Below are positions 8,818-13,597 of a stretch of DNA of 64,000 nt, piece after piece; positions within the stretch are counted from its first letter, which is position 1, and every line of letters begins with the position of its first letter. The notes beneath the pieces are model-generated. The model was not told the origin of the DNA. It was given only the letters and a program-made list of their open reading frames with translations, and ran no database searches. Source of the DNA: Planctomycetota bacterium (GTDB lineage Bacteria > Planctomycetota > SZUA-567 > H5-PLA8); the NCBI GenBank assembly GCA_038227875.1, contig JBBRPR010000016.1:64001-128000 (forward strand). Direction: 5' to 3'. The position numbers and the translations under genes are program-made.

Positions 8818-8922
8818 TTCCGAGTGTGATTTAATTTGATTCGATGAAAAACCGAACGTGTTTGTGAATATTCTGGGGCTGACTATCATCTCTGGCGATT
8901 ATTGCCATGGATGCGGAGCCCT

Positions 8923-9450
8923 ATGACAGAAGAGCCTATTGTCGTCGACGTTCGTCTTACACAAGCCGACTACATGCACTTCAACAAATGGCATTTTTAT
9001 AAGAGAAATCCGATCAGTAGTTTTTTGGTCGTCATGTCGTATCTCTCTATAGGTCTATTTCTCCTTGTGAATCTCTGGCCAAACCGTTGGATTCAATGCG
9101 AATTTACCCAATCCCTGTACATGCTCATTCTGCCATTCTTCTATTTGGTGTTCATTCCGTATTCGGTCGTCGCCGGATACAAAAAAATGGCAAAGTCCGA
9201 TCCCTCCCGTCTGGAAATGCATTACGAGTTTCTACCCGATTGTATTCGAGTAACGTTGCCCGCGTCCAAAGTTGAAGAGACTTGGGCAAATTATCAGAAT
9301 GTGGTCGAAACTCCGTCGCACTATTTTCTTTACCTAAGTTCGGTGCAGGCTCGCATTATCCCGAAGCGCGACCTGTCAGAGGACAAACTCGCCACTTTCC
9401 GGGAATTCATTGACCGCAACATCGACAAGACGAAACTCGTTCGCGGCTGA
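8923..9450 (+). CDS. YcxB-like membrane protein
   Basis: Two TM helices followed by W......ET..HYFLY......IIPKR. Confidence 0.8.
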   Translation: MTEEPIVVDVRLTQADYMHFNKWHFYKRNPISSFLVVMSYLSIGLFLLVNLWPNRWIQCEFTQSLYMLILPFFYLVFIPYSVVAGYKKMAKSDPSRLEMHYEFLPDCIRVTLPASKVEETWANYQNVVETPSHYFLYLSSVQARIIPKRDLSEDKLATFREFIDRNIDKTKLVRG

Positions 9451-9603
9451 ACACAGCCGCTTTAATGCGGCAGCAACTGGTCGAAGTGCCTCACGTTGTG
9501 CGCGAAATCGTGGTCGCAAATTTGCGACCACCCAAAACCAACGACCTCGCAAACCAAATATGGACTGATTCCGGCAAAGGTGTGAGCGCGGCTTGCGAAA
9601 TTC

Positions 9604-9747
9604 TCATGCCGCGCGCGCAGCCACAACCGGGCGCAGGCGTTTCTTCTCGACTCCGCAGCGCTGGCAAACTGAGGTATGGCTCGCGTCGGCGTGCTTCGTG
9701 GTCGTTTTGCAAGGGGCGCAGTAGTGGACGGTCGTTTGTGCTTTCAT
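9604..9747 (-). CDS. 47-aa zinc-ribbon microprotein A (CxxC-x14-CxxC)
   Basis: MKAQTTVHYCAPCKTTTKHADASHTSVCQRCG...; AAGGGA RBS; clear paralogue at 9983..10159. Confidence 0.8.
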   Translation of the reverse strand: MKAQTTVHYCAPCKTTTKHADASHTSVCQRCGVEKKRLRPVVAARAA

Positions 9748-9787: not shown

Positions 9788-9828
9788 AAAAAAGAAAAGG
9801 GCCGGAGGTTTCTGGCCTCCGGCCCTTT
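9788..9828 (-). terminator. Intrinsic terminator (attenuator A)
   Basis: Perfect stem AAAGGGCCGGAGG/CCTCCGGCCCTTT (9796-9808 and 9816-9828) with a U-rich tail on the minus strand, about 40 nt before the microprotein A start. Confidence 0.85.
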
Positions 9829-9857
9829 CACGCTTCTGAAAATTTCAGTTTAGCGGG

Positions 9858-9926
9858 TCAGGTCGAAGGCCTTTCAAACGAAAGATGAACGCAGCAGCGA
9901 ATGGCGGCTACGCGCTTCGAACACAT
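9858..9926 (-). CDS. Putative leader peptide A (MCSKRVAAIRCCVHLSFERPST)
   Basis: Short ORF whose last codons overlap a sequence complementary to the terminator 5' arm. Alternative in-frame ATG at 9959. Confidence 0.55.
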   Translation of the reverse strand: MCSKRVAAIRCCVHLSFERPST

Positions 9927-9982
9927 GGACCAGCTAAACAGACCTGACGTCAGATTCATCGTTGCACTCGGATTCCTTAAAC

Positions 9983-10159
9983 TCAATTCCAACGGGCGTC
10001 TTCGCTGTGTTCCTGGCTCGGGCTGGACTTCGCTACGACGCGACTGAGGTTCTTGATCGCTCCGCAGCGCAGGCACACAGAAGTCGTTTCCGACTCCGTG
10101 TGCTTGGTCGTTGCTTTACAGAGACTGCAGTAGTGAAGGCTGGTCTGTCTTCGTTTCAT
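9983..10159 (-). CDS. 58-aa zinc-ribbon microprotein B (CxxC-x14-CxxC)
   Basis: MKRRQTSLHYCSLCKATTKHTESETTSVCLRCG...; paralogue of 9604..9747. Confidence 0.8.
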   Translation of the reverse strand: MKRRQTSLHYCSLCKATTKHTESETTSVCLRCGAIKNLSRVVAKSSPSQEHSEDARWN

Positions 10160-10176
10160 GCTCAATCCCGATGGGT

Positions 10177-10216
10177 AAAACAAAAAGGGCCGGAGGTTTT
10201 TAAACCTTCGGCCCTT
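10177..10216 (-). terminator. Intrinsic terminator (attenuator B)
   Basis: mRNA stem AAGGGCCGAAGG / CCUCCGGCCCUU (one A-C mismatch) followed by UUUGUUUU, directly upstream of microprotein B. Confidence 0.82.
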
Positions 10217-10239
10217 GCACTTACGGGGTTGCTGGCAAG

Positions 10240-10347
10240 TCAGGCCGAAGATCTCTGAGTTTTCAAGTGTGCAAGACCGACAACGATCTTACGACGCATA
10301 CATCCGCAGGCGCACCAGCTCTGTGTAAGGCGACGAACCGAAGACAT
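10240..10347 (-). CDS. Putative leader peptide B (MSSVRRLTQSWCACGCMRRKIVVGLAHLKTQRSSA)
   Basis: GGAG RBS 6 nt upstream; the stop codon abuts the antiterminator CUUCGGCC. Confidence 0.6.
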   Translation of the reverse strand: MSSVRRLTQSWCACGCMRRKIVVGLAHLKTQRSSA

Positions 10348-10459
10348 GGGGCGCTCCAGAACTTCCACAGACAGTTGCACCTATCTAATTAACCCCTTTT
10401 AAGGGCTGCTGTCAAGAGGTGCGGGAAACAGAATTTTCTAAGTCTTTTGGAATCGTAAA

Positions 10460-13400
10460 TTATTTTTTGACGTCCGACACCGCCCCGTATTCGGTCTCAT
10501 CTTTCATCAGGTCCCCGCCGCCGCCGATGCCTGTTTCCACGTCGCGGACGGTCAAGTGGTAGAGACCCGCCGGTTCGTTGAGACCCAGCACAATCTGGAA
10601 TTCCTGCTGTCCTTCCGCAGCGACGAACGTCTGCGTGTACGCGGGCAGGAGCACCCCGGCGTCGTTGGTCAGCTCGGCGTGAAATAAATGCGTGCCGGGT
10701 GTGATTCCCAGCGCGGCGCTCAGCGTCGCCGTGACTTTGAAACTGCCGCGCGGGTCGATGCGGCGGAGCTTCACATTGAGGTGCTCGGCCTTGTACGGTA
10801 GCGCGGAGAGCAGTGTCGGCCGCAGCGCATCGAGCCGCGCCTTCACCGCCGCGCCGGCGCCGAGGAACTGGCCGGTCCGCATGTCGTACCAGTAACGCGT
10901 GACTTTGTCGGTCGTGCCGACCCAGACGGTCTGATCGTTGATGGCACTGCCGAAACGGCGCTGGATGCCAAAGAGCTCGTGGTCCGCGCCAAAATGGAAG
11001 CGAGCCTGATGCAGACCGCGGATCGGGACGCTCTCTTCCGACCACACTTTTAGCGGACTGCCGGAGCAGGCTTCGCCGAGCAGATCGCCGAGGACCAGGC
11101 GCAACGCTTCACCGCCGGTGGGTTTGCCGAATTGCTTTTCGTAGTCGGCGCGAGAAACGTCAAAGTAAGTGAACAGCGCCGCATCGGGAGCTTCACGCAG
11201 CGCGCCGTAATCCTGCAGCATCAGATTCAGGTAAACGAAGTGGCCCGCCCTGTTGGCTTTGGTCAGGAAGGCCGGCGCGCCCGACAGCGTCCCAGCTCCC
11301 ACGGCCGAACCCCGCGCCGCGACGCCGGGTTCCATTGCCCGCAACTCGGGCGACGAGGGACCGACGGGCTTGCGCGTCGCAGCGTCAATCAAGGTCACGC
11401 GCGCGGTGCTGGCGTCGGAGTTGGCATCATTGATGGTCAATTCTTTTCGCACGATTCCAAACTCGGCGTCGAGCGCTCCGGCGCACAGACTCTCCGCTGA
11501 GAATGTCGGGCGGCGCTTGCCGCTGCCGTCGAACAGTCCGCAGGCGCCGTCGGCGACGACCAACCCGCCGGCGCGGGCGAAAGCGCGGATCGCGACGGTT
11601 TCTTCATCGCTGAGCGAGACGACTTTGGGCAGGATCAGCACTTTCGTGTGGGAACTGGCCAGCACGCCGCTGTGCAGTTGCTGCGCGTTCAGATAAAGGG
11701 GCGAATAGCCGAGGTCTTCCAGCAGCATCGACCAGCCGCGCAAAGCGGCGAAACCCGTGTTGCTGGCCGCGTCGCGATCCATCCAATCTTGAGCGCTGGC
11801 GCGCTGGCAGTCGAGCAGCCAGTTCACCTGCAGTGAGCGCGGAGAATAGTAGAGCGCGACGGCATCGCGGACGGGCGTGGCGGCTTGGCGCAACTGCGTG
11901 ATGCCGCTGCTGAGCGCGCGGAAATCGGCGGCGAGCGCCTTGGTCGCGGGAAGCGTCTCTTGCTTGTCGTCGACGAGTGCGCGGGCATCGGCAATGCAGC
12001 CGTTGTCGCCGCGCAGCCAGCGGTCCCAGAGCTGATGAACATCCGCCGGATGGTGGCCGCCCAGCGCCGAGAGCCAGTGCATCGACGGCGCAAAGTTGCG
12101 GAGCAATTCGCGGCTGTACGCGTCGTCGTGTTCTTCAGCCCAATCGAGCACCTTGCTCAGCTGTGCGGCGTCCCAACCATTAAAGGGGGAGGGCGCAGCC
12201 AGTCCCGTTAGGCCGGCGCGGACTTCGTAGGGCGAATTGGCGCCGTGCTGCAGTTGCGCTTTGAATTCCCGCAGCATGCGCGTGAAGGCAAAATCATTAA
12301 ACGAGCGGAAGTCGCTCCACGCGGCGAAATTATCGTTGGCATCGTTGACCAGCACCGGCCGCGCACTGACGGGTTCGGGCACCAGGCTGAAACTGGTCTT
12401 CGGCTTGTCGGTCAGCAGCACTTGATCAGTGGTCGGCGGATGGACCTGATCCCACTTGGCAAAGTTCGAGCCCCATTCGCGGTTGAGCGCCGGGAGCGTG
12501 TGGTAGCGCCGCTGCAGCCACGCGCGGAAAACGTCGAGCGTGCCCGGCGCCATGCTGCCGTCGAAGGGTGCGTTACGGTTGGGTGACAGCGACAAGGCAT
12601 CGCCCAGCGACCAGCCCAGCGGCTGAAAGCCGCGCTTGGCCGTCAGGCCCGCGTCGATGTGTTCGGACATCTGCGCCACGGCGGCGTCATCAAACAACGA
12701 GAGCCCGCGCTGCAGCGCCGCGGCATCGCGCGATTTGCGGTACTGAAGGTAGGTCTGCTCCAGCGACTTTCCGGCCTTGAGCAGATTCTCGTCCGGCGCG
12801 ATCAGTTCACTGAAAAACGGCAGCGCCTGGCGCGTGTAGGTCGTCGGCGCATCGCTGGAGTCGCTCGCGCCGCCGGAGATGCCCAGCTCGCGGAGCTTCT
12901 GCCAGGCCTTGGGCGTGAGGAATTCGCCGCCGCGCAACGCGACGACGTACTCGTCCCACGGCTGCGGCGCATGGACCTGGAAACGGGTCTGCGCCACGAT
13001 GGCGGCGGGAATCGGCGCTTCGGTATCGTTCTGGCGCGGCGTGATGCGCACGACCACGAGGCGATGCAGCTGCCCGACGCAATGGTCCGGCATGGTGATG
13101 CTGAAGGCGATCGGTTCGCCGGGAGTTGCTTTGAAGGCGTCGACATTGTATTCGCCCATCACGCGCTGCGCGCCGTCGACCCAGAGCAGCTTCAAGCGCT
13201 CGGCGGGGGTCGTCGTGGCGAGCGTGCCTTCCAGCGGCGACTTGGCGTCGATCTCCAGCCGCGTCAGGTGCAGGGTGTAGGTCGCGTCTTCTTTTTTCGA
13301 CGTGACTTCGACGCGTTCGGGATGGATCGGAAGTTCGGAGCGGTCGACAAATTCAGCGCCGGAAGATGAAGATGATGTCAGCGCGGGCGCGGTGTAGTCA

Positions 13401-13597
13401 ACGTCGAGCGGCTTCTCTTCGGCCATCTTGCGCAGCGAGGCCACGTCGCTCTGCCCGACATGCGCCGCATGATCGCGTGACGACGCGTGGTCGTGCGACG
13501 TGTTCGTCGCGCAACCGGCGCAGAGCGTCAGCGCGGCCACGGCCAAAACACGGCGGCGGCTCCGGCGAGCAAAAAGTGGCTTGGGGCTAATTGGCAT
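10460..13597 (-). CDS. Lipoprotein with GH42-like (beta-galactosidase) TIM barrel and trimerization domain
   Basis: Lipobox LCAG-C; FRAWL..RY.TL.ALNREWG..F..WDQV; VALYYS; KVLILP....LSDEE..AIRAFARAGGLVVAD. Confidence 0.75.
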   Translation of the reverse strand: MPISPKPLFARRSRRRVLAVAALTLCAGCATNTSHDHASSRDHAAHVGQSDVASLRKMAEEKPLDVDYTAPALTSSSSSGAEFVDRSELPIHPERVEVTSKKEDATYTLHLTRLEIDAKSPLEGTLATTTPAERLKLLWVDGAQRVMGEYNVDAFKATPGEPIAFSITMPDHCVGQLHRLVVVRITPRQNDTEAPIPAAIVAQTRFQVHAPQPWDEYVVALRGGEFLTPKAWQKLRELGISGGASDSSDAPTTYTRQALPFFSELIAPDENLLKAGKSLEQTYLQYRKSRDAAALQRGLSLFDDAAVAQMSEHIDAGLTAKRGFQPLGWSLGDALSLSPNRNAPFDGSMAPGTLDVFRAWLQRRYHTLPALNREWGSNFAKWDQVHPPTTDQVLLTDKPKTSFSLVPEPVSARPVLVNDANDNFAAWSDFRSFNDFAFTRMLREFKAQLQHGANSPYEVRAGLTGLAAPSPFNGWDAAQLSKVLDWAEEHDDAYSRELLRNFAPSMHWLSALGGHHPADVHQLWDRWLRGDNGCIADARALVDDKQETLPATKALAADFRALSSGITQLRQAATPVRDAVALYYSPRSLQVNWLLDCQRASAQDWMDRDAASNTGFAALRGWSMLLEDLGYSPLYLNAQQLHSGVLASSHTKVLILPKVVSLSDEETVAIRAFARAGGLVVADGACGLFDGSGKRRPTFSAESLCAGALDAEFGIVRKELTINDANSDASTARVTLIDAATRKPVGPSSPELRAMEPGVAARGSAVGAGTLSGAPAFLTKANRAGHFVYLNLMLQDYGALREAPDAALFTYFDVSRADYEKQFGKPTGGEALRLVLGDLLGEACSGSPLKVWSEESVPIRGLHQARFHFGADHELFGIQRRFGSAINDQTVWVGTTDKVTRYWYDMRTGQFLGAGAAVKARLDALRPTLLSALPYKAEHLNVKLRRIDPRGSFKVTATLSAALGITPGTHLFHAELTNDAGVLLPAYTQTFVAAEGQQEFQIVLGLNEPAGLYHLTVRDVETGIGGGGDLMKDETEYGAVSDVKK

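Follow-up and report, generated by a model that had tools for sequence, protein, structure and literature searches.

Putative leader-peptide attenuators without an amino acid codon run precede tandem four-cysteine miniprotein genes in a Planctomycetota bacterium

The 64,000-nucleotide (nt) stretch of a Planctomycetota bacterium analyzed here (GenBank assembly GCA_038227875.1, contig JBBRPR010000016.1, positions 64,001 to 128,000; the window hereafter means this whole stretch) carries two tandem units on its minus strand, unit B and, downstream of it, unit A. Each unit consists of a short leader open reading frame (ORF), an intrinsic terminator, and a gene for a zinc-ribbon miniprotein with four cysteines (Table 1). 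The leader peptides given in the original prediction were present as written, and in both of them H-L is followed by seven residues and the stop, in agreement with the ending H-L-x3-R-x-S-x-stop. The attenuator framework proposed for this locus (leader ORF, antiterminator, and terminator) was supported by 11 related copies of the element. In the window, the frame of leader A was open for 85 codons, compared with 4 and 15 codons in its other frames, and that of leader B for 46 codons, compared with 15 and 6 codons in the remaining two. The ATG of the longer form of leader A lies 24 nt past the stop of miniprotein ORF B. Both leaders were rich in rare codons (codon adaptation of 0.47 for A and 0.33 for B; gene median, 0.72), and the codons at position -4 from the stop, AGG in A and AGA in B, were the rarest in the window, with relative use of 0.02 and 0.01.

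Covariance models were built successively from 3, 7, and 11 copies, and the final model was used for scores. The element was found in 11 copies, 10 of them non-redundant (L043 and L044 are near-identical): eight were spread over 7 of the 17 genomes of one Planctomycetota family, and metagenome contigs supplied the other three. The genome of the window held only its two copies, A and B, and the covariance-model search identified no true copy among 45 further genomes from the class and 148 from elsewhere in the phylum. True copies scored 57.8-79.5 bits and the best other matches at most 41.6 bits; the next-best matches inspected were gene-end terminators, a repeated segment, or sequences otherwise without leader features. 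L009 (genome G008) and L010 (genome G001) were the only miniprotein relatives in the family genomes with the same leader and terminator, and L043, L044, L045, and L046 were further family copies found by the covariance models. A metagenome scan gave four loci, one identical to L010 and three new (L028, L029, and L031). A genome-collection search with closer alignment rows returned the three already known Planctomycetota metagenome-assembled genomes and one weak Salinicoccus match.

The anatomy of the unit was conserved among these copies. The leader frame was open for at least 39 codons in all 11 of them; the other two frames were shorter than 20 codons in 12 of 22 cases. The stop stood at the same position in every copy, as TGA in ten and as TAA in L031, and the base change in the latter therefore kept a stop. 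An in-frame ATG was present 22-44 codons upstream of the stop in all copies, and the spacer from the leader stop to the terminator measured 25-32 nt throughout (25 nt in unit B and 32 nt in unit A). All copies had a terminator with a 9-11-bp GC-rich hairpin and a U-rich tail, in which 90% of the alignment cells pair; the tail was weak in L043/L044 and L045. Apparent changes on both sides of the terminator helix were not accepted as covariation, being largely a register shift in one row. Upstream of the leader, a promoter-like motif (TTGAC[AT], 15-17 nt, and a box of the type G(G)RTTWRKT) was located 62-93 nt before the ATG in 10 of the 11 copies (L009, L010, L028, L029, L031, L043-L046, and unit B). 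A generic sigma-70 scan did not pick up the promoter-like site of unit B. The -10 part of the motif (TTAGT/TTAAT after a G run) departs from TATAAT, which may reflect a promoter preference of the lineage. The motif scan of the 11 copies revealed no promoter motif of its own for unit A, which is therefore probably transcribed by read-through from unit B.

The last codons of the leader, CCU (C/U)CG (G/A)CC, are nearly identical to the 3' arm of the terminator and therefore complementary to its 5' arm. When all 13-nt windows between the start of the leader and the terminator were compared with the terminator 5' arm, the best complement abutted the leader stop in all ten non-redundant copies, with offsets of 0 to +3 nt and energies of -10 to -26 kcal/mol (-14 to -26 kcal/mol for duplexes over a longer window). 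The last leader codons are predicted from this complementarity to form an antiterminator strand that is mutually exclusive with the terminator. The suggestion that the R-x-S-x-stop ending mirrors the antiterminator sequence was borne out, since the last part of this ending (x-S-x-stop, in general form P-[P/S]-[A/T/V]-stop) is conserved across copies and the ending coincides with the antiterminator strand. In unit B, UCUUCGGCC pairs perfectly with GGCCGAAGG, a compensated U-A standing for the C-G of the other copies, and the terminator of this unit keeps an A.C mismatch. This compensatory change supports the predicted antiterminator as a real helix.

Folding of the RNA was consistent with a switch between the two structures. 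For nascent transcripts ending before the terminator 3' arm, the minimum-energy fold contained the antiterminator in 8 of the 10 non-redundant copies. Once the whole terminator was included, the predicted equilibrium favored the terminator state in 7 of 10, as would be expected of a switch under kinetic control. In minimum-energy folds of the leader alone, four to nine of the nine antiterminator core bases paired upstream in all ten copies, but the partners differed, lying in the Shine-Dalgarno region of the leader in five and in the leader body in the other five. The former pairing arises because CCUCC is complementary to GGAGG. Within the 9-nt core, four wobble changes (L010, L029, L045, and L046) keep Pro and break a pair, and five C-to-U changes keep pairing and alter the residue, so that neither the peptide nor the helix appears to be strictly fixed.

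These data also bear on the possibility that there is no switch at all, and that the leaders are chance ORFs or independent micro-genes ending at ordinary terminators, with the miniproteins expressed from promoters of their own. GC-rich DNA yields long chance ORFs, and some copies indeed have other frames of 30-296 codons; the leader peptides show little sequence conservation, and the covariance model also matches ordinary gene-end terminators at lower scores. However, this scenario does not account for a best terminator-arm complement placed exactly at the leader stop in every non-redundant copy, for the compensatory change in unit B, or for scores that clearly separate the true copies from all other matches. 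Moreover, the conserved promoter lies upstream of the leader, and none similar was noted, by eye and without a scan, in the 27-106 nt that separate the terminator from the miniprotein gene. We regard the absence of a switch as highly improbable.

Table 1. Features of units B and A in the window and endings of the ten non-redundant leader peptides
Feature	Position (strand)	Sequence or description
Promoter-like site, unit B	10387..10415 (-)	TTGACA (10415-10410), 17 nt, TTAATT within GGGGTTAATT (10396-10387)
Leader ORF B	10240..10347 (-)	MSSVRRLTQSWCACGCMRRKIVVGLAHLKTQRSSA; 35 codons + TGA; GGAG 7-10 nt 5' of ATG
Leader B stretch in metatranscriptome library	10210..10342 (-)	one 133-nt insert, adapters at both ends, run X7, 0 differences
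Putative antiterminator 5' strand, unit B	10243..10254 (-)	AGAUCUUCGGCC; last four sense codons of leader B; rank 1 of 128 windows, -19.6 kcal/mol
Intrinsic terminator, unit B	10177..10214 (-)	GGGCCGAAGG / loop / CCUCCGGCCC, then U tract UUUUUGUUUU; hairpin -20.7 kcal/mol
Zinc-ribbon miniprotein gene B	9983..10159 (-)	58 amino acids (aa); C-x2-C-x14-C-x2-C; ends ...RWN
Leader ORF A, long form	9858..9959 (-)	in-frame ATG at 9959; 33 codons + TGA
Leader ORF A	9858..9926 (-)	MCSKRVAAIRCCVHLSFERPST; 22 codons from ATG at 9926 + TGA; form quoted in the original prediction
Small hairpin in leader A	9871..9884 (-)	CUUUC-GUUU-GAAAG; encodes L-S-F-E-R of the H-L-x3-R motif
Putative antiterminator 5' strand, unit A	9861..9871 (-)	GGCCUUCGACC; rank 1 of 129 windows, -18.1 kcal/mol; longer duplex -19.6 kcal/mol
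Intrinsic terminator, unit A	9788..9829 (-)	(GAAA)GGGCCGGAGG / CCAGAAA / CCUCCGGCCC(UUUU), then CUUUUUU; hairpin -25.3 kcal/mol
Zinc-ribbon miniprotein gene A	9604..9747 (-)	47 aa; 4 Cys
Leader A ending		...IRCCVHLSFERPST
Leader B ending		...GLAHLKTQRSSA
L009 leader ending		...CQISLSRWRKPSA
L010 leader ending		...AHMLSISRVRKPPA
L028 leader ending		...VTMWRHMPVPPA
L029 leader ending		...TRISARLASRPPA
L031 leader ending		...QVCIARSTEPPA (TAA stop)
L043 leader ending		...MRAWLDRPPPA
L045 leader ending		...DTGDPSPPA
L046 leader ending		...TREAHAPPV

To compare the peptides, the ten non-redundant leaders were aligned from the stop. An alignment of homologous leaders had been expected to expose the conserved codons or motif; it revealed a conserved ending, P-[P/S]-[A/T/V]-stop, and no conserved codon type, Cys, or H-L. 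The original prediction had taken the leaders to be Cys-enriched and Cys-tRNA shortage to be a possible signal, such that a stall at Cys codons in Cys shortage would induce the 4-Cys proteins. Of the enrichment, the three Cys in each window leader stood. They amount to 6 of 68 residues, with 3.2 expected from base composition (binomial P=0.098), or about 9% of leader codons compared with 0.96% of codons in the long ORFs of the window. The Cys codons of the pair, among them CC at -12/-11 in A and the C-x-C-x-C of B (-24 to -20), all lie far enough upstream to leave the antiterminator free on a stall, and L010 and L031 have two Cys each. Over the ten leaders, however, the 12 Cys observed were close to the 10.3 expected from base composition, four leaders (L028, L029, L043, and L045) had none, L009 and L046 had one each, and the positions did not align between copies. 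Making a Cys-rich protein under Cys shortage would also make little physiological sense. Sensing of charged Cys-tRNA is thus very unlikely to be the signal of the family. A Cys effect specific to the two leaders of the window is conceivable, as the CC of leader A is well placed for a stall that would free the antiterminator.

The other candidate signals fared no better in the alignment. Branched-chain codons, put forward as an alternative, were not enriched (53 I+L+V observed, about 57 expected), and neither was His (13 observed, 9.5 expected). H-L at -9/-8, a candidate nascent-chain arrest motif, was confined to the tandem paralogues A and B of the window and missing from the other eight leaders. 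No amino acid codon cluster and no position-conserved residue type was found in the stall zone of the ten leaders, and Cys and H-L are not worth pursuing as a conserved signal. Between the leaders of L043 and L044, the sole closely related pair, we counted five synonymous and four non-synonymous codon changes (3 and 1, respectively, in codons 8-41), which hints at a peptide-level constraint, although the numbers are small. Internal in-frame Met (11 observed, 3.9 expected) and Lys (15 observed, 6.2 expected) were over-represented in the leaders, and Tyr, Gly, and Glu were under-represented. Hairpins equivalent to the small hairpin of leader A (CUUUCGC...GCGAAAG) were seen in the folds of L009 and L010 and were absent from the other seven non-redundant copies.

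The conserved ending derives from the consensus CCU CCG GCC of the last three codons, read as P-[P/S]-[A/T/V], or as S-S-A in leader B; seven of the ten leaders end in P-P-[A/V]-stop, and five have R or K at -4. Such an ending raises the possibility that the switch gauges the dwell of the ribosome at the leader end, where P-P-A/V-stop or AGG/AGA at -4 would slow bond formation or release and report the status of elongation factor P (EF-P), release factor 2 (RF2), or a rare tRNA, or would simply hold the ribosome for reliable termination. The run R-P-P-P-A in L043, the UGA stop in 10 of 11 copies, the rarity of AGG and AGA in the window, and the four wobble changes that break an antiterminator pair yet keep Pro are in line with this possibility. 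Loss of EF-P is reported to break the coupling of transcription to translation at polyproline and to increase premature termination at intrinsic terminators (PMC5021804), a further point in favor of this possibility. On the other hand, the window leaders end in P-S-T and S-S-A and that of L009 in P-S-A. The RNA helix itself requires CCUCC, so Pro-Pro may be a by-product, and third-position changes in four-fold Pro codons are necessarily synonymous and give no proof of selection on the peptide. We consider a gauge of dwell at the leader end unlikely.

The choice might also be set in trans, by a small ligand or a protein (possibly the zinc-ribbon product) binding to the leader RNA, with the ORF being incidental. 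Two different miniprotein families occur behind the same leader, autoregulation would be economical, and small basic zinc-ribbon proteins often bind nucleic acid. In contrast, no conserved sequence or structure that could provide a binding pocket was found from the promoter up to the final 15 nt of the leader, no Rfam family was matched at threshold, and an incidental ORF leaves the conserved open frame, the fixed stop, and the TGA-to-TAA change unexplained. Control by such a factor seems quite unlikely. The Rfam search returned 0 matches in the whole window at gathering thresholds. The best sub-threshold match, at 9789-9874 (-), was to RF02353 BjrC68, a Bradyrhizobiaceae small RNA (26.5 bits; E=2e-4; gathering threshold, 39 bits), and the likeness lay mainly in the GC-rich terminator hairpin and U tract. 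Sub-threshold Rfam identities were rejected as resting on this terminator likeness.

Taken together, we consider it reasonably probable that both leaders are the sensing ORFs of ribosome-mediated attenuators without a codon run, which gate the two tandem 4-Cys genes and respond to a general slowing of translation. Transcription would start at the TTGACA-type promoter before unit B, with unit A probably fed by read-through, and the leader ORF of 22-44 codons would be translated, its last three to four codons serving as the antiterminator 5' strand. This strand would pair with the 5' arm of the terminator, which lies 25-32 nt downstream. A ribosome that has arrived at the leader stop would mask the strand, the terminator would form, and transcription would end before the miniprotein gene. 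If the ribosome were delayed about nine or more codons earlier, the strand would be free, the antiterminator would form first, and RNA polymerase would read through. With no ribosome, the strand would be held by the predicted upstream pairing of the leader, and termination would again be favored. Termination may be made reliable by the Pro-Pro-Ala-UGA ending, or in the window by the rare AGR codons, keeping the ribosome on the strand for long enough. The data establish the anatomy, its conservation, and the placement of the antiterminator complement at the end of every leader, whereas the role of ribosome position in the choice and the nature of the signal are what we infer here. Since the leaders have no conserved codon run, we think that the switch most likely responds to leader translation that slows or lags in general, as under starvation, with translation inhibitors, or at low translational capacity, and not to Cys-tRNA shortage.

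Several points weigh against this interpretation. The general-slowing signal is argued from an absent codon run and is not a positive finding, and each leader of the window does carry three Cys. Leader translation and termination at the hairpins are both deduced from sequence. A Shine-Dalgarno-like GGAG/GAGG occurs 7-14 nt before the ATG in only 6 of 11 copies, and leader A has no clear Shine-Dalgarno site, which leaves the start codons uncertain. Apart from unit B, covariation in the antiterminator was weak (P=0.055 in a permutation of cognate and non-cognate pairs), because most copies share the consensus, and in the nascent folds of L043 and L044 the strand pairs with the Shine-Dalgarno region, not with the terminator arm. 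The sample is also small and phylogenetically narrow, with the ten non-redundant copies coming from one family. A broader and, in our estimation, unlikely extension is that the copies make up a family-specific translation-status regulon. Its output would be set by the closeness of ribosome and polymerase together with dwell on the P-P-A-UGA or rare-AGR ending, and, on a failure of protein synthesis to keep pace, it would induce two unrelated zinc-ribbon families with a feedback effect on the translation or transcription machinery.

The element can be compared with several known systems. The classical enterobacterial amino acid leader-peptide attenuators include trpL, hisL, leuL, thrL, pheL, and ilvL. 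Like the trpL/hisL type, the element has a short leader ORF (its translation being inferred here), an intrinsic terminator, an exclusive antiterminator on the terminator 5' arm, and a predicted upstream sequestration, and its leader stop lies at the antiterminator strand, so that a finished ribosome would favor termination. It differs from the trp/his/leu/thr/phe/ilv type in having no codon run, in targeting orphan zinc-ribbon miniproteins instead of biosynthetic enzymes, and in its Planctomycetota host. Leader-ORF attenuators upstream of vmlR, bmrCD, and lmo0919, known from term-seq surveys, reportedly sense ribosome-targeting antibiotics or general stalling. They are said to follow the same RNA logic without an amino acid codon run, any stall leading to read-through, and appear to be the nearest functional analogue; the genes they control are resistance genes (ABC-F, efflux pumps, and methyltransferases), for which drug induction has reportedly been demonstrated. 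The genes downstream of the leaders described here had no resistance-family match in Pfam or NCBIfam.

The endings of the leaders also recall regulatory peptides of other kinds. SecM, ApdA, and ApdP are arrest peptides of the RAPP/RAGP type. As in these peptides, an R/x-x-P-P-like sequence stands close to the C-terminus of what would be a regulatory upstream ORF. However, R-A-P-P or R-A-G-P itself was found in none of the ten leaders (the closest approaches were A-P-P, in L046, and R-P-P, in both L029 and L043), none of the genes downstream encodes a secretion component, and the predicted effect of an arrest is opposite. Salmonella mgtL and mgtP are proline-codon leaders that link the speed of the ribosome at proline to the terminator decision. 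Unlike in mgtL/mgtP, the Pro codons here would be the antiterminator strand itself, so that a stall on them should favor termination, and 3 of 10 leaders, including both of the window, lack Pro-Pro. The similarity to mgtL/mgtP, and to the EF-P-dependent coupling reported in PMC5021804, lies in leader Pro codons that would tie ribosome speed to a terminator.

Literature searches for leader peptide, zinc ribbon, attenuation, and terminator together returned only work on anti-TRAP. The leader peptide of anti-TRAP is rtpLP, and its regulation uses a T-box and a Trp-codon leader acting on translation. Anti-TRAP (rtpA) of Bacillus subtilis is a small zinc-binding protein (PMC10327191). It sets a precedent for leader-RNA antitermination that turns on the synthesis of a zinc miniprotein in response to translation or tRNA charging. 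Family, PDB, and structure searches indicated no sequence or fold relation of the present miniproteins to anti-TRAP. Attenuation by leader peptides is well established in Proteobacteria and in some Firmicutes. Among the literature matches listed, no description of such an attenuator in Planctomycetota was found.

The genes downstream of the leaders encode zinc-ribbon ORFs of 47-67 aa without family assignment. Miniprotein A has two 47-aa relatives with 85% and 79% identity (P0001 and P0002). The family is rare: a search of 1.84 billion proteins gave 88 representatives at E<=1e-3, of which 16 reached E<=1e-10. Beyond the genome of the window, 11 of the 16 genomes in its family-level group had a match, as did 1 of 44 genomes from the other families of the class. 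Neither miniprotein of the window matched a Pfam or NCBIfam family at cutoff, and the ESM Atlas returned only unnamed clusters. The predicted fold of miniprotein B is a zinc ribbon of four short strands (mean predicted local distance difference test score of 76), and Foldseek found no PDB structural match to this model at E<=0.001. Archaeal eL42, its best PDB sequence match (E=0.035), was rejected as too weak to use. The leaders of L043-L046 precede a different 4-Cys miniprotein of 61-65 aa (...HCPHCSGVLRAFGDTGKWACERCQQVV...) with the same Cys spacing. Homology between the two miniprotein families was not demonstrable (hhalign probability, 4%). The second family was present in 4 of the 17 family genomes and stood behind the leader in all four.

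A C-terminal W-N after a variable, often acidic or His-rich tail was observed in many relatives of miniprotein B (among proteins P0003-P0022 and at loci L009, L011, L013, L018, L021, L029, and L031), with 12 of 21 fetched proteins having it, and in miniprotein B itself (9983-9991, minus strand), which suggests a docking or recognition tag. Four relatives in genus g10 (L011, L013, L018, and L021) have no leader and directly follow genes for a FecCD-type permease and an ABC ATPase; that of L013 also precedes a TetR-family gene, and the L011 protein carries a His run. This neighborhood may link the family to metal or cofactor uptake. In the G008 copy (L009), tandem GGTGAGT-like units at approximately 1360-1400 lie between the terminator and the miniprotein start and lengthen the spacer.

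In the surroundings of the units, a 1045-aa gene upstream of unit B (10460-13597, minus strand) ends 45 nt before the unit B promoter and had only a weak match to GH42 beta-galactosidase (E=7e-6 over 40 residues). A perfect palindrome, GTGGTCGCAAATTTGCGACCAC (9510-9531), lies between the convergent YcxB-like gene (8902-9450, plus strand) and miniprotein gene A and is probably a shared bidirectional terminator. Read 1 of the 133-nt metatranscriptome insert over leader B was on the plus strand, which in most stranded libraries corresponds to minus-strand RNA. The insert fits minus-strand leader RNA; DNA carry-over is possible, and the insert does not prove transcription. A metatranscriptome contig of RNA run X7 covered leader B. 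The run had no contig over the ORFs or unit A, a lack that carries no information on expression. The DNA contigs of runs X2, X3, and X4 were identical to the window and thus add no variation. Among the candidate loci that were rejected as copies, L034/L055, L050, L052, L054, L056, L062, L048, and L065 were 3' ends of longer ORFs with terminators, and L057, L061, L063, L064, L066, L067, and L075 had no leader stop or downstream miniprotein. L073 and L077 (genome G117, contig 7, approximately 6 kb apart) were two copies of a repeated segment, identical over at least 270 nt and each ending in the same strong terminator; they are a repeated element in another Planctomycetota genome that the model matched through its hairpin.

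Collectively, our findings point to a real, narrowly distributed, and apparently undescribed attenuator family. With a length of approximately 190 nt and no amino acid codon run, it represents a compact and testable switch. It also offers a regulatory handle on two orphan miniprotein families, as its inducer would tell when the cell needs them.

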